From the UHGV virus genome UHGV-0211791: a DNA stretch of 39,228 nt; one strand, given 5' to 3'. How positions within the stretch are numbered: the stretch's first letter is position 1; each line of letters begins with the position of its first letter. Below the pieces are notes generated by a model that searched no databases, was not told the DNA's origin, and saw only the letters and a program-made list of their open reading frames with translations. The DNA is from a virus. Made by a program: the position numbers and the translations under genes. Shown piece by piece: positions 4,007 through 35,617 of the stretch.

Positions 4007-5236
4007 ATGGCTAGTACTCTTCTGACAGACAGTAAAATACGTGGGCTGAAGCCTAAAAAATCTGCGTTCTACACCTGGCAGGCATCAGCCACCAGAGGAA
4101 CAGGAAGGCTTGGTGTGAAGACATACCCATCGGGCCGCAAGACCTTCGTTTACCGATACTTCCTCAATGGTAAAGAGAAATTCGTCAATCTTGGTGATTT
4201 CCCATCTGTGGCACTTGCCGAGGCGATAGAAAAAGCAAGTTCCGCCGCCAAGAATATTTCTGAGCCAGTTAAAGCCGTAACCGACCTTTCTTCCATTAAA
4301 CAACTTTTCGACGATTATATAGAAGATCAGAAAGCCCGTGGGAAACGTTCATACGAAAAAACGCAGAACCGGATTAACCAAGTTTTGGACAGCGAGCACA
4401 TTGATCCAGGAATGCTTGCGCGAGATGTCACCCCTGACCACATAAAACGAGTGTTATCAGAGTTCATCTCCCGGGGAGCCAAAGCCGGAGCAAACAAGGT
4501 TCGAGCCAATCTTCATGCAATTTTTAACTTTGGCCTATTTGCTGACAACGATCCGGCAAACATTGACAACAAGACCATATACGGGCTTGAACGCAACCCG
4601 GTATCTGTCGTTCCGGCCCAGCGTGGGGTCGATAAGGCACTGGATAGATTTCTTCCCTGGGATGAATTGTCCGAGTTGTTGGACATCCTTCATCGACCTG
4701 CATCGTCAGTTCCCATGAACAGCGATTTTGCCCAGCTTTTACTCTGTTGTATCCATACAGCAGGACAACGCCCTTGGGAGATAATGACGAATACCAAAAG
4801 CAATTGGGATAAGAAAGGAAAAGTGCTGACGGTTCCACCTGAAATCTCCAAAACTGGTGATTATCACGTCATCCCTTTAAGCGCTACAGCTACCAGCATT
4901 CTTGAAGAGATGGAAAAACGTTATCCTGAATCTGATTTTCTTTTCCCTGCGGAAACAGCTGAAGGACACCTACTTTCTGCCGAATACGGAAAGCAGCTAC
5001 GAAAATTCTGTGAACGCGAACCATTTAATAAATTTACGCCAAGGGATATACGCCGCACCTTTAAAACACTGGCCGGAGATATGGGTATAAGCACCGAGAT
5101 GCGCGACCGATTGCAGAACCATAAGCGGCCAGGAGTGTCAGCAAAGCACTATGACCGCTATGACTATCTTAAAGAGAAAAGGGAAATAATCGAAGAGTGG
5201 GAGCTGCGGCTTTTGTCTCTGCGGCAAGCACCTTGA
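4007..5236 (+). CDS. int: P4-type tyrosine integrase (N-terminal arm-binding DUF4102-like domain)
   Basis: N-terminus LTDSKIRGLKPKKSAFYTW...VYRYFLNGKEKFVNLGDFP. C-terminal catalytic R...HxxR...Y (HKRPGVSAKHYDRYDY). Confidence 0.9.
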   Translation: MASTLLTDSKIRGLKPKKSAFYTWQASATRGTGRLGVKTYPSGRKTFVYRYFLNGKEKFVNLGDFPSVALAEAIEKASSAAKNISEPVKAVTDLSSIKQLFDDYIEDQKARGKRSYEKTQNRINQVLDSEHIDPGMLARDVTPDHIKRVLSEFISRGAKAGANKVRANLHAIFNFGLFADNDPANIDNKTIYGLERNPVSVVPAQRGVDKALDRFLPWDELSELLDILHRPASSVPMNSDFAQLLLCCIHTAGQRPWEIMTNTKSNWDKKGKVLTVPPEISKTGDYHVIPLSATATSILEEMEKRYPESDFLFPAETAEGHLLSAEYGKQLRKFCEREPFNKFTPRDIRRTFKTLAGDMGISTEMRDRLQNHKRPGVSAKHYDRYDYLKEKREIIEEWELRLLSLRQAP

Positions 5237-24557: not shown

Positions 24558-24582
24558 AACAAAAAAGCCGCCCAGAGGCGAC
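24558..24582 (-). terminator. Rho-independent terminator (GTCGCC-tctg-GGCGGC + T6) between dif-like site A and the scaffold gene
   Basis: Hairpin followed by a T-tract on the minus strand. Confidence 0.5.
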
Positions 24583-24618
24583 CTTGTGAGATGGGAAAAA
24601 TGTTCGAAATAACGGGCT

Positions 24619-24646
24619 ATTTAACATAAGGGTTCTTACCCGCACC
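24619..24646 (-). repeat. dif-like 28-bp site A: GGTGCGGGTAA-GAACCC-TTATGTTAAAT (minus-strand reading)
   Basis: XerD arm 11/11 and XerC arm 9/11 against E. coli dif GGTGCGCATAA-TGTATA-TTATGTTAAAT. Confidence 0.65.
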
Positions 24647-24795
24647 GACGAAAACGGACTCGATTAAAATGTCCCCTTAAAGCCGTAAAAGTAGCAATTA
24701 ACTGGGCTGAAAATCGGTCTTTTCGAATACAACATTTTCATAACATTTCGCGGGTATTGCAGTTCGCATGAAATGAATGCTCAAAGCCGTATTTT

Positions 24796-25548
24796 TCATT
24801 TTCTCGGTGCAGGAATCTGTACTTCAGGCCAGCATTTGCAGTTCGGCAAACATCCGGCGTGTCCGGTCATACCGTCCAGCGTCGGCGGGTTATCCCAGCG
24901 CACAAATTTATCTTTCATCTTGCGGTGAGTATCGCGCGTTCCGGCCCCCTCGATACGCCACCAGTAGCCCTCTGATCCAACCGAAAGGGCTCTGGCCTGC
25001 GTCAGCGCGCCGGTAGCTCGTCCAATCTCTGTACGGGCAATCAGCTGCGCCCTGCTGGCGGCCACGTCACCGGAGGCCATGATCATCTCGTAGAGCTCGT
25101 CCGGACGTTCACCAGTGATAACCGCCTGCATTGCGCGCTGTTGTATGTCCATCACGCGATCGGCTGCTTCCAGCGGCAGGGACTTCATCAGCTGAATCTG
25201 GCGGTACACGATATCCTGAGCCACCTGCCCGACGGGGGTATTACCCACCACATCGCGCAGGCCAGCGCCGATTTCCTCTGATACCGATTTCCACTGATTC
25301 CATTCCTCCTGCTCGACCTGGGCAAACATCCTTCGCCCGACCTGCTCTGCCCAGTCGCTGATTACCTCGGAATAGTCCACCAGCGTTTTCGAAATGCTGT
25401 CAGCGCTGGCCTGTGAACCATCGTAGGTACCATCGACGATCTGCCCTATCTGGTTTGCTATCGCCAACAGGCTTTTTCGATACTGGATCTCCGAACGGCG
25501 GCGGAGGGATAGTTTCAGGTTCATCCTCCTCCCACTGGGCCTTCGCAT
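24796..25548 (-). CDS. Head morphogenesis protein (Mu F-like / SPP1 gp7 family). Start uncertain; overlaps the portal 3' end.
   Basis: Position after the portal gene. About 250 aa. Confidence 0.5.
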   Translation of the reverse strand: MRRPSGRRMNLKLSLRRRSEIQYRKSLLAIANQIGQIVDGTYDGSQASADSISKTLVDYSEVISDWAEQVGRRMFAQVEQEEWNQWKSVSEEIGAGLRDVVGNTPVGQVAQDIVYRQIQLMKSLPLEAADRVMDIQQRAMQAVITGERPDELYEMIMASGDVAASRAQLIARTEIGRATGALTQARALSVGSEGYWWRIEGAGTRDTHRKMKDKFVRWDNPPTLDGMTGHAGCLPNCKCWPEVQIPAPRK

Positions 25549-26902
25549 CTTCTATGTCCTCGTCAGTGATAGAACCACCGATCCCAATCACATCAGAAAT
25601 GTTCCTGAGATCATTAAGCGCGGCTGCCGGAGGCATTCCGAGGTCACGAACGGCGGTACCGAGTGCAGTAACCACATTGTTCGCCATCGTTGCGCGGTCC
25701 ACGTCTGACATCTCCCAGAGCTTGTTAAACTCGAAAGTAAAATCGTCAGGTAGTGGTTCACCGAACAGAGAACGCCAGGAGATATCGAGCAGCCAGCGGA
25801 TATGGCGGCGTAAGCGTCTCTCCTGCAGCGAGTTAACCCGGCTGTAGTAGTTTTCCAGATCGCCGTCGCCGGTATTGAAACCAGCAGGGGACTGTCCAAA
25901 CAGACGGACAAGAGGAATTCCCGTCGCGCCAGAAACCTGCTCAGCGAAGCGCAGGAGGACATCCGCGATACCGGCGAACGTATAGCTGTGAGTCTCGAAT
26001 TTATCCCTTGAGTCCATCATGGTCATGCCTTCGATGGTCTGAAACTCACGAATCATGTCCATGTGCTTCATCAGCGACTTTTCCAGATCACCGCCTTTGG
26101 CAAGGATGTCACGAAGCTTTTCAATGCTGTAGGTTCGCAGATGTGCTTTGTGGATCAGCTGTGTGGTGCCGACCGTTGCAGTATCGAACGCCTCTATACG
26201 CTCGAAAATACGCTCGACAACAGACATCCCCCAGCCGTTTTCCGTTTGGGCCTGCTGGAAAGGTAGCGTATCACCCTCCATGCGGATAACGCGGCTATGG
26301 TGGATCTTCCAGGTGGGGATCCCCTGCTGGTTCGTGATTACCTTGTAATATTTCGGTTTCCCAAAATCGGGACCGTAATCGGTAACGAGATCGTAATAAC
26401 TCGGGTTAACCATCCAGCGGTCAAGGCTCATCACGCCCTTAAACTGCCCCTCTTTGATGCGATCCAGTTTCAGCGGGGAGGACATATCCTGCCCTTCAAG
26501 CAGGACCACCAGCACCGCGCCACCGTACAATCGTGACCATTTGAGGTTATCGTTAAGCCCATCCCATATAGCGAGCTCATCCCAGAAGGTTTCGAGCTTA
26601 CCCTTTTGTCCGGGTTTCAGCTTTGAGCTGATGTTAATCCCCTTGCGGGTCATATCATCGGCCATCGCATCCACACCGGCACCAACGAGGAACGATGAAC
26701 GATACGCAAACTCCAGCATCACCCTGTTACGGCTGATGTACCCGGGCATGTACATTCCGCCCGTCTGTATGTTTCTGGTGTCGCTGCCAAGTTTGGCCGT
26801 GAAATTGTTGTACCCGTCAGATGTCCTAACGGGCTGCTGTGCGCCGTTCTGGCGTTTCTTTCGGGACATGTCACGCTCCGGCCAGTTTGGCCCAGGTATC
26901 AA
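25400..26902 (-). CDS. Portal protein
   Basis: 500 aa, directly after terL. Confidence 0.65.
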
Positions 26903-28502
26903 GAGAGGAATCCATCGGCGCGTAATTAATCATTACGGCGTCTGCAAGGTTCGGCGATTTTGTGCCTTCCGGCTGTTTATCCACGAGGATTTTACCGACG
27001 GCGTTTTTCGACCATGTAGGCTGTGAAAGCTCCATCAGCAGGCGGTCAATATTTTCTATCTCGCAGCTTATCGAAATGATTTCGTCAGGGTTGTAGTCCA
27101 TCCCGTTCAGCGCGCGGAAGGTGTTACGAAACAGCTTGCGAAGATGCCACCAGCTCTGTGCTTTCGCGTTCGCGAAGAAGTCTTTATTCAGGCGCGCCGC
27201 TTTACCGTTATCACCAGGAACGGCTTCATCTTCCGGATCGAATACGCTACCGCTACCACGGAAAGGCGTAGCTGTGATTGTTCCCCGGCCTTCAGCCTGC
27301 CTGAGCTCGTTTATCACGCGAGCATCGCCACGCGCACCAGCACCCAGACCGTCCTCATCGAAACGGAACTCATCCAGACCGTAATCGTCACAGTACCCAA
27401 ACGATTTAACGACAGAAGCGTAGATGTCGCTGCCAATGCCAGACCATTCGTGAACGTTCTGCAGAAGGAAGCCATAGCGGCAAGAAAAGCCGTTTTTGTC
27501 TTTCCCTTCGTCTGCGATATCCATTGCGCCGAGGCGCTGGCCGCTGGGCTGAATACCCAGTTTGATATGCGCGTCGACGGCAGCCTGCACCCATTCAGAA
27601 GGAATGAGAATCCCCTCTGTGGATGCGCTGTAGTTCAGGTCCAGTTCCTGAGCAACGATAATCGGATCATCAATTTTCAGACATTCGTTGCGGTACCACT
27701 CATCATCCTTACGCGGGTCGCTGCGCCAGTGGAACGTAAACACCGGGATATTTCCGCTGTGGCGCTTTTTAGCAAACGGGTTATTCATGCCGTTGACCGA
27801 AGAGAGGTCTATACGGCAGCGGGTGGTCTGTGATAGCGCAGCATCGATGAGAAATGGCCGTTTGAGGAATGCCGACTCATCCACAAAATAAAGCGTGGTA
27901 CGGTCACCACGGCCAATGTTATCGCCAGCCTCTCCCTTAATTACCGCGCCCGTTTCCGGGAACTCCACGCGCATGTAAGGGGCATGTTTTTTGTCACTCC
28001 ATGAACCGCGAAACTCAACCGGCAGCAGCTCGACAAACTTACGCGCTTTCCAGAACAGTGCTTTCGGGTCGCCGGTACTGTCGACATATTCCTCTTTACG
28101 GGAACCGAACCCGATCACCATTTCTTTGTTGAACAGGCAAAGCGAACAGGCCAGACCGATAGAGGTCCAGCTCAGCCCCATTTCTCGGCTTTTTTCTGTC
28201 AGTCCATGCTCAAGACTGGCGCGCCTGTCCATGATCCAGTGAATCCATTCCTCCTGGCGGGGGAACAGCAAAAACGGGATGGTGGCAGGCAGGCCATAAT
28301 CGAGGTTACGCGGGTCCGTCGTCATACCCCAGTCGATGATGAACTGAGCCGGGTTAGTGCGGTAAAACTCACGGAGTGCCGGAAGCATTTCAGGCGCTTT
28401 CCTGATCCGCTCCAGCCTCTCCATTCTCCATTCAAACACGGCGGTATAGTCCGGTTTGCGGAAGTCAAAGGGGAACGGGATCGGCACAGAAAAATTCCTC
28501 AA
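26871..28502 (-). CDS. terL: Terminase large subunit
   Basis: 543 aa after terS. TTG start in the ORF track; the real start may be the internal ATG. Confidence 0.7.
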
Positions 28503-28512
28503 AAACGCCCCG

Positions 28513-28540
28513 ATTTAACATAATGGTCGTTACCCGCACT
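28513..28540 (-). repeat. dif-like 28-bp site B: AGTGCGGGTAA-CGACCA-TTATGTTAAAT, in the same orientation as site A
   Basis: XerD arm 11/11 and XerC arm 8/11 against E. coli dif. Sits 10 bp upstream of the terL start. Confidence 0.65.
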
Positions 28541-28685
28541 GGCGCAACAGCACCCATCACGCAAACGGCGTGAAGCCTCTGTTTTGAACAGAAAAGTGGT
28601 CAAATCGGGATGAATAAAACGTGCATAAAACGAGTCAAAAAGTGCATAGCGTTTTTACGGTTCGAAACGCCTGTTTTTGCAATTT

Positions 28686-29288
28686 TCAGCCCAGGTATTT
28701 TTTGTAGATATCTGCTGCTTCCTGCGGGGTCAGGTTCGCCGCGTCGGCTTTGGCTGCCTCGTCCATATTGTTGAACGGTTCGAAAATTTTCGGTGCTCCC
28801 AGCTCCATAAGCAGGGTTGCCGGAACTTTTACCCCCTCAGCCTCAAGCAGTTGCGCCGCCTCTAGCGCGGAGTATTTCCCGGCTACCTTGTGTTTCATCA
28901 CCTCGCGAAGCACATCACGCTGACGTTCTTCCTCGCTATAGACGCTGGTACCAAGACCGAGCGCTTTCGAGAAAACAGCAATATCGTTGTGCGTGGGCAG
29001 CACATCTTCAATTGTGGTTTTCACACCATCCGGCGATGTGGTGACAACTTTCCGTTTACGAACGTCCAGGCTCTTACCGGCGACGCGGTTTATTTTCTCT
29101 CTGAGAGCTTCGCGAGCCTCAGTAAAAGCGCGCTCAAACTCGATATTCTCTTTACGCCAGCGACGGATCGTCGTCTCGTCCACACCTAAGCGCTGAGCAA
29201 CCATCCGATTGCTGATTTTGCTACGGGCTAATGCCATGTCCATAACGATACCGACGTAGGCTTTTCTGAAGCTTTTTTTAGGAGCCAT
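28686..29288 (-). CDS. terS: Terminase small subunit (N-terminal HTH)
   Basis: 200 aa. HTH NRMVAQRLGVDETTIRRW. Position upstream of terL. Confidence 0.65.
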   Translation of the reverse strand: MAPKKSFRKAYVGIVMDMALARSKISNRMVAQRLGVDETTIRRWRKENIEFERAFTEAREALREKINRVAGKSLDVRKRKVVTTSPDGVKTTIEDVLPTHNDIAVFSKALGLGTSVYSEEERQRDVLREVMKHKVAGKYSALEAAQLLEAEGVKVPATLLMELGAPKIFEPFNNMDEAAKADAANLTPQEAADIYKKYLG

Positions 29289-29339
29289 ACTTCCGCCTAA
29301 GTCAATGTGATTATTTTTTGTTCAAAATCCAATTTCTCC

Positions 29340-29450
29340 GATCCGGGTGCGGCGTATCACGCGGTAAATTCTGGCGTGCAGGCCGCGTCCTCTCTGGTGC
29401 CAAGTGCGGCATATCAGAGGGGGTAAAAATGCGGCATATCCTTTTTTTCG
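29340..29450. repeat. Iterated GTGCGGC(A/G)TATC repeats (GGTGCGGCGTATCAC, AGTGCGGCATATCAG, AATGCGGCATATCC) including a degenerate dif-like 28-mer, downstream of the Xer-like recombinase gene
   Basis: Three direct copies within 110 bp. A fourth (GTGCGGCATCATC) lies at about 30416 inside the recombinase 5' end. Confidence 0.5.
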
Positions 29451-29532
29451 GGAAAACTGCGATTTGATGCCTGGAGGCCGCGCAGAATGGGGAGATAGTG
29501 GATCGCCCTAATATTTCCACTATGTGGATAAC

Positions 29533-30546
29533 TCAGTCCAAATCCATCTCCACCACTTCACCGAACAGGTGACCGTAAACGTCCATTGTGGTTTTGATGT
29601 TCGAATGCCCAATAAGTCGGGAAACCTTCAGAATATCGACGCCTTTGTTTGCCAGGCGAGATACAGCAAAGTGGCGAAGATGATGGAATCGCTTAATGCC
29701 ATAGTCGTTCAGGGTTCTGACGAGAACGCCCTGAGTGCCGTAGCTGGTAGCGAGGCATGCGCCGGTAAACTGGTTGCAGATAAGAGGCTCAGAGGTACCG
29801 AGTTTACTTTTATCCAGCAACGCGAAAAGCTCACGCGGCATCCTTACCCGGCGCTCCACGCCTCTTTTCAGCCCCTCATGTATAACGCCGTCAACAACAT
29901 GCCCCCGGATGTCGATCCAGTCGGCTGACACGTCGTTATAAGTAACCGCCAGAGCCTCACCGATGCGCAGGCCACAAATCCCGAGCCAGCACGCGATACG
30001 CTCACGAACTGGCGCGTTATTCAGTAGCTCCCTGACCGATGATGATGGCGGTATGGTGATGGGTCGACGCTTCCGGCGCACGGGACGGTCAACAGGGTTA
30101 AAAGTGATGAGCCGCTTTTCTACCAGTAGGAAGAAAGCCGAACGAATCCAGCGATGGCAGCCGGTGCGTACCGAATCAACAATATCGCGATGGCTGATAT
30201 GGAGAATATTTTTTTCCAGTATCAGCCCGTCTACAGCGAGAAGATCGTGACGGCATTTCGTATAAGACGATAGTCGTATGATATTTTTTTCCAGCTTGCC
30301 GGCCTGATACCCCAGATAAAACAAAATTAACTTTCGAAAAGTCCAGGAATGGTCTATTCCGGTCCAGCTGGCAGTTCGACAATCCAGCTCGATATTCTGT
30401 TTTTGCCAGAAAAGATGTGCGGCATCATCAATATTCTTAAAGATGCGGCGGCGTCCATGACCGGATTTTTCATCCTTCCAGTGGACGTAATATTTTGATT
30501 GTCCATTGACATCAGTGGATTCTTTTATCGAAGCCATGCTGAACAA
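29533..30546 (-). CDS. Xer-like tyrosine recombinase (second recombinase, in the late region)
   Basis: Catalytic motifs GLRIGEAL, HHLRHFAVSRL and LIGHSNIKTTMDVYGHL match the XerC/D pattern (LLGHS..TT..YTH). Confidence 0.75.
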   Translation of the reverse strand: MFSMASIKESTDVNGQSKYYVHWKDEKSGHGRRRIFKNIDDAAHLFWQKQNIELDCRTASWTGIDHSWTFRKLILFYLGYQAGKLEKNIIRLSSYTKCRHDLLAVDGLILEKNILHISHRDIVDSVRTGCHRWIRSAFFLLVEKRLITFNPVDRPVRRKRRPITIPPSSSVRELLNNAPVRERIACWLGICGLRIGEALAVTYNDVSADWIDIRGHVVDGVIHEGLKRGVERRVRMPRELFALLDKSKLGTSEPLICNQFTGACLATSYGTQGVLVRTLNDYGIKRFHHLRHFAVSRLANKGVDILKVSRLIGHSNIKTTMDVYGHLFGEVVEMDLD

Positions 30547-34770: not shown

Positions 34771-35094
34771 CTACTTAATTTTATCTACCCATTCACGCCA
34801 GCGCGCCTCGCGAATTTCTGGGGGCAACCGCTGATCTTCAAAATGGTCAGACAAATTTATTGAATCTGGAAGCAACGCCCAGGCAACATAGAACTCATGC
34901 GGTTCGAACTCGCCACCAGCAAACTCGTATGCACCGACGTGGTAAACTTCACCATCTTCTTCGAATGCCAATACGTGGGCAATATGCCAGCCATCGCAGG
35001 GGTTAAGCAGAAGAACCCATTTACCGTCGAGTTCCTGCGTCAATTTTTCGCTGGCGGGACGAAAAACCAATTGCTCAGTAATTTGTTGAGACAT
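34771..35094 (-). CDS. Hypothetical protein, first gene of the late operon (107 aa from ATG 35094)
   Basis: ORF. The longer ORF-track form would overlap the pR'/tR' region. Confidence 0.4.
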   Translation of the reverse strand: MSQQITEQLVFRPASEKLTQELDGKWVLLLNPCDGWHIAHVLAFEEDGEVYHVGAYEFAGGEFEPHEFYVAWALLPDSINLSDHFEDQRLPPEIREARWREWVDKIK

Positions 35095-35099
35095 GCTGG

Positions 35100-35210
35100 C
35101 TCCAGAAACGACAAAGCCCCACCATTTCTGGCAGGGCTCGATTATTAAGCGTTGTGTCGAAGTGACCACTCTTAACAGGATATTCCGTTTTTTACGTACG
35201 TAAACACTTT
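35100..35210 (-). promoter_or_regulatory. Candidate late promoter pR'/qut and tR' region downstream of Q
   Basis: 110-bp AT-rich spacer with hairpin AGCCC-N14-GGGCT followed by TTGTCGTTTCT. Position analogous to lambda pR'. Confidence 0.3.
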
Positions 35211-35617
35211 TATTTACCAGCCACCAATTTAGTTTCTGGCTCCCGTGATACATACCTGTCCATCTCAAGCCTTACATCAAGCATCATCAACATGCCTTCA
35301 ACAACCCCTTCGGCCTTCTGAAGCTTTTTACCGATATGTCCGTCGGAGCAACCATGCTTGCGGGCCAGCGCCATAAACGTCATGCCCATCACATAATAAT
35401 CCACCAGCAAATCATGCAGGTCCTGGTTATTTTTATTCAGCCTGGCGATGCACCCGCAGATGACCATCGCATCATCATCACAACATTGTGGCCGCGATTT
35501 TACCCTGGCCGGAAGAAGTCCTTTAAATCCAGCGGCAATCGGTGCCCAGGCAACATCTTCATGATTATTGGCCGCCCATGCGCCCCAGCGTTCTAATACC
35601 TGTTGGATGTCCCGCAT
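35210..35617 (-). CDS. Q: Late antiterminator Q (21/82/DLP12 quuD-type)
   Basis: [21 protein letters not shown]...[12 protein letters not shown]...LVDYYV matches this Q family. TAATG coupling to the primase. Confidence 0.8.

Follow-up and report, generated by a model that had tools for sequence, protein, structure and literature searches.

The elements described here are most closely related to sites of the host recombinases XerC and XerD (XerCD), of which several kinds have been described. Chromosomal dif has the central region TGTATA, lacks an accessory arm and is controlled by FtsK at the terminus. The cer site of ColE1 consists of an XerCD core with an 8-bp central region and an accessory arm with an ArgR box, and its resolution is independent of FtsK. 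In Acinetobacter, pdif sites bracket exchangeable gene modules, the flanking sites being oppositely oriented. Integrative mobile elements exploiting Xer (IMEXs) such as CTXphi, TLCphi and the gonococcal genetic island carry a dif-like attP, rely on host XerCD and integrate at dif by homology of the central region, without an integrase. To our knowledge, exploitation of Xer by viruses is known mainly from filamentous phages integrating at dif. At the psi site of plasmid pSC101, XerCD act at the core while PepA and ArcA wrap the accessory arms, and only direct repeats on one supercoiled molecule are recombined (bioRxiv 10.64898/2026.02.23.706985). Here we analyze two elements, A and B, in the late operon of the virus genome UHGV-0211791 (39,228 nucleotides; this whole stretch is referred to as the window). 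Judged by alignment, both sites appear to be complete psi-type XerCD sites and not bare dif cores. Their occurrence in late operons of tailed temperate phages, satellite-like loci and E. coli prophages represents a different situation from that of the filamentous phages.

Two Xer-type cores in the late operon

A preliminary description of the sequence had reported two 28-bp dif-like sites in intergenic gaps of the late operon. Both were said to have the same orientation, an XerD arm identical to that of E. coli dif, a 6-bp central region, and two and three substitutions, respectively, in the XerC arm. Pattern matches and the map of open reading frames (ORFs) bore this out in every point, and the letters of both cores were verified exactly. 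The sites and the genes next to them are:

24619–24646, minus strand: core A, with XerC arm GGTGCGGGTAA, 6-bp central region GAACCC and XerD arm TTATGTTAAAT (pattern matches)
28513–28540, minus strand: core B, AGTGCGGGTAA-CGACCA-TTATGTTAAAT (pattern matches)
24796–28502, minus strand: terL-portal-MuF segment between the cores, with terL at 26871–28502, portal at 25400–26902 and MuF at 24796–25548 (ORFs, family searches)
28686–29288, minus strand: terS-like helix-turn-helix protein of 200 aa, for which all terS family matches are weak

According to ORFs and family searches, the order on the minus strand is recombinase gene, a noncoding stretch of about 245 bp (29289–29532), terS-like gene, site B, terL, portal, MuF, site A, DUF2213 and capsid genes. 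Both cores are co-oriented with these late genes. The end of core B lies 26 nt upstream of the likely GTG start of terL, and core A is located 85 nt upstream of the DUF2213 scaffold/protease gene.

The 27-mer pattern shared by the two cores matched the window at cores A and B only. The same was true for the E. coli dif pattern with up to three mismatches, and neither pattern gave a match in 100 dinucleotide-preserving shuffles. The 11-mer alone (≤1 mismatch) is weaker evidence because it was found at least twice in 11 of the 100 shuffles. The two sites are thus real, far beyond chance expectation. The genome-wide count that had been proposed earlier gave exactly two sites, both with the dif pattern and with the profile described below.

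The two XerC-arm differences of core A fall at positions 7–8, at which dif (CAT), cer (TAC) and psi (CGC) also disagree with each other. One relative (L055) carries both dif arms in exact form (GGTGCGCATAA-GCACCA-TTATGTTAAAT), in agreement with the earlier view of the sites as genuine Xer-type sites.

Alignment of the whole elements with plasmid psi sites

Each core is embedded in a conserved noncoding element of 200–280 bp. With an nhmmer profile built from about 80 non-redundant elements we detected exactly two copies in the window, and a third, degenerate copy was rejected since the profile finds none. The parts of the two elements, together with a neighboring hairpin, are:

24565–24845, minus strand: A-type psi-like element between MuF and DUF2213, consisting of accessory arm, core A and right flank (nhmmer E 2e-54)
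28455–28721, minus strand: B-type psi-like element between terS and terL, made up of core B, its right flank and an accessory arm in which a TTTATGCA-N3-TTTATTCA box is found (nhmmer E 8e-55)
24730–24745, minus strand: TGTTATGAAAATGTTG, an ArcA-box-like direct repeat (pitch 11 bp) whose start is at a distance of 99 bp from the XerC arm on the upstream side
24564–24585, minus strand: terminator-like hairpin with T-run between element A and the scaffold start (terminator scan)

The hairpin is also present in phage Mulock, which has no element A at this junction. We therefore assign it to the leader of the scaffold gene and not to the psi-like element.

We aligned both window elements and the element of phage Mulock with pSC101 psi and an IncN plasmid site using MAFFT. 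The IncN site was found by BLAST of the site A gap against plasmids: core A with about 25 bp of right flank occurs in 88 plasmids, and the one inspected, an IncN plasmid (pABWA45_3), carries a psi-like site whose upstream DNA is clearly homologous to the psi accessory region of pSC101. The alignment spans accessory arm, core and right flank, which is why we regard the elements as full psi-type sites. Common to them are a block at the left end (GAAAAATAC..CTTTGAGC in site A, GAAGAAATAG..CTTTCAGCC in psi), the region of a box in the middle of the arm, GAGT at 12–13 bp before the core, the core itself and about 20–25 bp of right flank.

All cores in this alignment share the 11-6-11 layout with the arm on the XerC side. 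The central region comprises 6 bp in every phage core, as in psi and dif, in contrast to the 8 bp of cer. Core A is identical at 26 of 28 positions to the IncN core (GGTGCGCGTAA-GATCCC-TTATGTTAAAT), which has the same XerD arm; the psi core (GGTGCGCGCAA-GATCCA-TTATGTTAAAC) differs from this arm at the last base only. Compared with dif, the phage sites have the central regions GAACCC and CGACCA and psi-like arms in addition to the identical XerD arm.

Similarity of the accessory arms was expressed as z scores of 170-bp arms, excluding the core. A-type arms reached z 4.1–5.4 against psi and the IncN site, with 4.1 and 4.8 for element A of the window. Element B is homologous to the element between terL and portal of Mulock and to an element downstream of Q in E. 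coli DEC5E (z 8.7 and 8.9). Against cer, the arms gave z 1.7 (A) and 0.0 (B), neither of which is significant. The A-type box TGTTA-N6-TGTTG begins at position -99 in the window and in L088, and psi and the IncN site carry a box of the same kind, TGTT(A/G)-N6-TGTT(A/G), at -96. ArcA may bind the A-type box, as its resemblance to ArcA boxes suggests. At the corresponding position, B-type elements have the direct repeat TTTATGCA-N3-TTTAT(G/T)CA instead.

In some B-type variants (L013 around 12000, L055 around 3455, L067 around 11992, L084, L135) the XerC arm is preceded, at a distance of 17 bp, by an inverted XerD-arm-like sequence, ATTTAACGTAA. At that position, ACATTTTAAnCGA is found in A-type elements.

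Distribution and conservation of the elements

For an estimate of conservation we used 67 viral loci that had been retrieved via the recombinase protein and thus independently of the sites. They were searched with up to five substitutions, and by the XerD arm with up to one mismatch, so that more degenerate XerD arms would escape. Every site found in these loci has an XerD arm matching at 11 of 11 positions, together with about 15 variants of the XerC arm and about 14 central regions (counted from the search outputs). Variation in the XerC arm is found at positions where dif, cer and psi themselves disagree.

A scan of viral contigs with the core pattern yielded at least 120 stretches, which we sorted according to the flanking genes. 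Many loci are close relatives, and site and locus counts are therefore not independent events. Among the matches listed, 177 sites were co-oriented with the head genes and 2 were not, and they were distributed over the following junctions:

between terS and terL: at least 64 sites among the matches listed
between MuF and DUF2213: at least 64 sites among the matches listed
between terL and portal: at least 19 sites among the matches listed

In other loci the element directly follows the Q gene and its terminator (Q/tR') and precedes the lysis genes. Elements of this kind thus recur where modules meet in many temperate phages of Enterobacterales. Three satellite- or PICI-like (phage-inducible chromosomal island) loci with a B-type element (L077, L135, L188) show the order P4-alpha-like primase, helix-turn-helix gene, element, small ORF and a portal-like gene of 540 aa. 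The B-type arm is present in about 142 of 5426 complete E. coli genomes. In E. coli O55:H7 DEC5E (L198, 3480–3700) the B-type element is located between Q/terminator and holin, with a degenerate XerC arm (GGTTCCTATAA) and a perfect XerD arm. A GG variant of the core was confined to Enterobacterales, including two plasmids, in a collection with one genome per species. The phage elements thus differ from psi and the IncN site in their location, since they reside in late operons of satellite-like islands and of tailed phages that integrate and not in plasmids, and in that a phage genome usually holds two copies with different central regions.

Among deposited phages, 17 carry the element. In none of these records is it annotated, and in all but one of them no feature is listed under it. 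In the full-text literature, within an incomplete coverage that leaves room for an earlier description, we found no psi-, cer- or dif-like sites described in late operons of tailed phages. The B-type copies in DEC5E and about 140 other complete E. coli genomes are likewise not annotated.

Several loci show further peculiarities at the elements. In L043 (12006–12560), L174, L064 (1590–1960), L149 and L181, small ORFs, whose opposite orientation was judged by eye, are inserted between the 25-bp right flank of core B and terL. Insertion of these small genes 3' of core B as Xer cassettes was rejected, as no second core flanks them. On a 275-kb plasmid of Klebsiella sp. WOUb02 (L207), a B-type and an A-type core are only 1.68 kb apart. 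This is shorter than portal and MuF together and suggests a partly deleted phage segment on the plasmid.

Yersinia phage YP3 (L001, L196; PV092592) has three A-type copies, each at a breakpoint of gene order. Its terL is fused to a cos-like block, with terS 15 kb away beside tail genes. The arrangement is either a misassembly across repeats or a real rearrangement at the elements. We dropped the interpretation of YP3 as a clean duplication of element A around portal and MuF because gene order is scrambled around the three copies, and the genome was not used as evidence.

A natural deletion between core B and core A

Among the matches listed there are 60 loci with two sites, and in none of them are the two central regions identical (0/60). 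Selection against self-deletion of the segment between the sites would be expected to give such a pattern.

The preliminary description had predicted that junctions of an A x B deletion might be found, and one exists in nature. In locus L081 we found the order terL, B-type arm, GGTGCGGGTAA-CAGTCA-TTATGTTAAAT, A-type right flank and DUF2213. Two sister prophages from the same study (L217, L218) show the parental order terL, B, portal, MuF, A, DUF2213. Over the 1090 bp of the L081 contig that this comparison covers, identity to the sisters is 96.1% up to the core and 97.7% from the core on. Relative to L217/L218, the 2295 bp from core B to core A are missing in L081, and portal and MuF are lost with them. 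Crossover can be placed within 13 identical bp, CA followed by TTATGTTAAAT. Identity of 13 bp is too short for ordinary RecA recombination. The stretch is where XerD exchange takes place.

We further compared non-redundant elements with each other. In chimeric pairs the similarity changes at the core, in 13 pairs in one direction and in 8 pairs in the other, which is a small sample.

Possible function of the elements

For the A- and B-type elements we lean, with modest confidence, towards resolution by host XerCD with PepA-type factors between directly repeated copies. Each site is made up of the 11-6-11 core, some 160 bp of accessory DNA next to its XerC arm and, on the right, a conserved flank of about 25 bp. 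Only host proteins would be needed: XerC and XerD would bind the core, and PepA together with an accessory protein of the response-regulator type (ArcA-like for the A type) would wrap the accessory arms. As at plasmid psi, the reaction would be independent of FtsK and restricted to direct repeats on one molecule. Different central regions within one genome would make A x B recombination rare, so that the essential terL-portal-MuF segment is retained. In a dimeric circle or tandem prophage, A would meet A and B would meet B, and monomers would result. As a by-product, the cores could provide portable crossover points where late-gene modules meet, leading to occasional deletions and chimeric joints. 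Binding of XerCD, PepA and ArcA as well as the biological role of the elements are inferred here from sequence. A comparison with pdif modules shows the same bracketing of genes by Xer sites, but the phage sites are direct repeats co-oriented with transcription and possess long accessory arms.

A number of observations weigh against this interpretation or its scope. B-type arms are less similar to psi and the IncN site (z 0.7–4.5) and lack the TGTTA-N6-TGTTG box, and the A-type box is inverted in relation to the box of psi and the IncN site. L081, compared over 1090 bp of its contig, is a single natural deletion product in the viral-contig collection, and it is the one natural example of recombination between direct repeats with a crossover in the core. 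Salmonella phage SEN34 has the same gene set without intergenic gaps and without sites, from which it follows that the elements are dispensable. A major role in mosaicism is called into question by jumps of identity at site-free junctions: between L113 and the window, identity is 90% for terL, 58% for portal, 88% for MuF and 42% for DUF2213. The benefit of multimer resolution is not obvious for a phage that integrates and packages from concatemers. Finally, the near-perfect co-orientation with late transcription and the placement in late operons only would also fit a role linked to transcription.

A different use of the same proteins appears unlikely to us but deserves mention. Host XerCD with PepA-type factors could provide a site-specific route for swap or deletion of modules (lysis, terminase, portal-MuF, capsid), or the two heterologous sites could form an architectural XerCD/PepA synapse without strand exchange. 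If the module-swap reading were true, the sites would represent the "linker sequences" that the modular theory of phage evolution had postulated.

The placement of the sites at module junctions and the natural core-to-core deletion suggest that tailed-phage genomes are substrates of a site-specific recombinase of the host. If confirmed, this would provide a concrete mechanism for some of the mosaicism of phages and the decay of prophages, as well as a new role for XerCD/PepA.

Alternative explanations

The elements might be selfish or neutral psi-type passengers that are spread by Xer or homologous exchange among phages, satellites and plasmids and bring no benefit to the phage. Presence of the whole element is polymorphic at otherwise homologous junctions, as a comparison of Mulock with L130 and the window shows. 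Relatives of the SEN34 type without any element, the reassortment of left and right flanks, the occurrence in plasmids, phages and satellite-like islands and the accumulation of moron genes beside the cores all point in the same direction. What does not fit is that the XerD arm is invariant and the XerC arm looks functional while the flanking proteins have diverged to 42–77% identity. Such invariance across diverged copies implies purifying selection on Xer binding, although the element itself could be the unit selected. Within genomes, the consistent heterology of the central regions implies selection at the level of the phage. We consider such passengers improbable.

It is rather doubtful that the elements are cis-acting signals of late transcription, be it a promoter, a Q/Nus loading site, an insulator or a roadblock, with their likeness to psi being incidental or with XerCD/PepA co-opted without recombination. 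Besides the co-orientation and the confinement to late-operon junctions, including the position just after Q/tR', this idea can draw on the motif TGTTAAAT, which resembles an extended -10, and on the right flank TTTTTTAACAAATTATCC with its rrn boxA-like TTTAACAA, which persists in front of different downstream genes. A synapsis without recombination is also conceivable for two heterologous sites in one genome. On the other hand, a sigma-70 scan calls no promoter at either site, and the classical Q-PR'-tR' unit of the window lies elsewhere (35.1–35.6 kb), the element copies being two in number. Where the element follows Q, its position is beyond the terminator and not at the promoter. SEN34 expresses the same genes without the elements, and the homology extends to plasmid psi sites that function in DNA recombination. 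The RNA energy of the A-type consensus is only -8.5 kcal/mol. Conserved RNA structure in the A-type element was limited to a weak long-range helix and the hairpin of the terminator that follows A. Rfam gave no match at the gathering threshold in the whole window and only chance-level matches around site A. We dropped the reading as an RNA element for lack of an Rfam match and of conserved A-type structure beyond the terminator.

The recombinase and its relation to the sites

About 1 kb from site B the window encodes a tyrosine recombinase, which the preliminary description had combined with the sites into one Xer module:

29533–30537, minus strand: tyrosine recombinase of the integrase type, 334 aa, with arm-binding-like N-domain, core-binding and catalytic domains; not linked to the sites

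The ORF extends from 29533 to 30546 and contains the catalytic motifs that had been quoted for it. Translation probably begins with the ATG at 30537, so that the protein has 334 aa and not the 337 aa assumed before. The protein matches Pfam PF00589 (E 2.6e-15), and its catalytic residues R, K, HxxR, H and Y are intact and align with solved integrase and XerA structures.

It had been suggested that this protein is a surrogate of XerC which acts together with host XerD on the sites and on nearby repeats, serving dimer resolution, IMEX-like integration at dif or a programmed rearrangement. The intact catalytic residues, the short distance to site B and the sequence GTGCGG, shared by the repeats and the XerC arms, speak for such a role. 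So does the fact that its best partial matches in NCBIfam are XerA, IntI, XerC and XerD. With 25–41 bits, however, these matches are far below the family cut-offs of 220–435 bits (28.9 bits against a cut-off of 335 for XerC, 24.9 against 330 for XerD). PHROGs assigns the protein to a general integrase family. An AlphaFold2 model (mean pLDDT 89) predicts an N-terminal domain of three strands and a helix, followed by core-binding and catalytic domains. When this model was searched with Foldseek, Tn1549 Int and full-length lambda Int were at the top, and XerD was absent from the best 50. According to the model, the recombinase is thus of the integrase type. Like lambda Int and Tn1549 Int it has three predicted domains, of which the N-terminal one is arm-binding-like, and it does not have the two-domain architecture of Xer proteins. 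This contradicts its description as XerC-like.

Sites and recombinase are also found without each other. Phage Mulock, a lambdoid Klebsiella phage with a single, phiP27-like integrase, carries GGTGCGGGTAA-CAGTCA-TTATGTTAAAT between terL and portal, and no homologue of the recombinase was detected in it by tblastn. The XerC arm of core A therefore also occurs in phages without the recombinase. Further sites without it are present in E. coli prophages, satellite-like loci and plasmids. Conversely, locus L038 combines the recombinase (97% identity), terS and the cos-like block with an unrelated terminase, and no site was found within 10 kb downstream. XerC-arm variants do not track the presence of the recombinase. 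In the near-identical prophage of E. coli DX6 (L197, 18448–19170) the recombinase is truncated to 240 aa. Because sites occur without recombinase and recombinase without sites, the idea of one Xer module is not supported, and the recombinase is a separate gene that travels with the cos-like block and terS. For annotation this means that in this phage family a "Xer-like" recombinase beside dif-like sites does not indicate one functional module. Several structural genes of the DX6 prophage are frameshifted.

IMEX-like integration at dif is unlikely in particular, as GAACCC and CGACCA are unlike TGTATA. The phage differs from IMEXs in having an integrase. The integrase gene that the preliminary description had mentioned besides the recombinase is indeed present at 4007–5236. 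An integrase also occupies the end of the DX6 prophage, and no entry of the locus table puts this prophage at dif. Taking these points together with the behavior of the repeats described below, we regard a surrogate of XerC as very improbable.

Repeats and a conserved block upstream of terS

Three copies of GTGCGGCRTATC (29347, 29404, 29429) had been described as flanking the recombinase gene. The copies are present, but all three lie between the stop of the recombinase gene and terS, so they do not flank the former. The features of this stretch are:

29347–29440, minus strand: three direct repeats, GATA(T/C)GCCGCA on the minus strand, spaced 25 and 57 bp, just upstream of terS; probably terS recognition sites (cosB/pac-like)
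29441–29532, minus strand: highly conserved noncoding block after the recombinase stop, with the inverted repeat ATAGTGGA-N13-TCCACTAT and GGGCGATCCACT; possibly cosN-like

In all relatives the repeats keep the positions +105, +130 and +187 after an anchor close to the stop. Three types occur: GATAYGCCGCA, GATATGTCGCA and an A/T-rich motif ending in TTCCGCA. The type of repeat corresponds perfectly to the helix-turn-helix allele of terS in 61 loci (DETTIRRWR in 33, DEATIRNWR in 28). No column of the recombinase alignment separates the repeat types, and identical recombinases occur with both. In view of this covariation the repeats are probably recognition sites of terS, of the cosB or pac kind. 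Xer arms or arm sites of the integrase were rejected on the same grounds, and the assumed tie of the repeats to the recombinase did not hold. The repeats also have the opposite orientation to the cores.

The block of about 90 bp next to the repeats is conserved better than the neighboring genes, and GGGCGATCCACT weakly resembles the cohesive end of lambda. Block, repeats and terS may together form a layout like cosN-cosB-Nu1 of lambda, with three direct repeats just upstream of a helix-turn-helix terS and co-varying with its allele. Here, the cos assignment is based on this layout and the weak resemblance to the overhang.

That the A and B sites cyclise terminally redundant injected DNA like Cre-lox of P1, lying just downstream of a packaging start, is hardly credible. 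In window-type genomes the sites do follow the putative terS repeats in the packaging direction, at distances of about 0.8 kb and 4.7 kb. In other phages, however, the element comes after Q and precedes terS by about 2 kb. The layout of the packaging region is cos-like, and linear DNA that has been injected lacks supercoils. Synapsis of the psi type needs supercoiled DNA (bioRxiv 10.64898/2026.02.23.706985).

Other features of the window

No tRNA genes were found in the window by ARAGORN, and the tRNA attP stated in the preliminary description was thus not confirmed. A function of the recombinase region in anti-phage defence was rejected: neither the recombinase nor the two upstream ORFs were matched by PADLOC, and for the terS-like protein there was just a weak match to mad1 (E 0.0015). 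The late-control unit of the window (35094–35617) comprises a Q-like antiterminator (PHROG_79), a PR'-like sequence TTTACG-16-TATCCT, a motif like that of the lambda 6S RNA (GGTCACTTCGAC) and a terminator just before the next gene.

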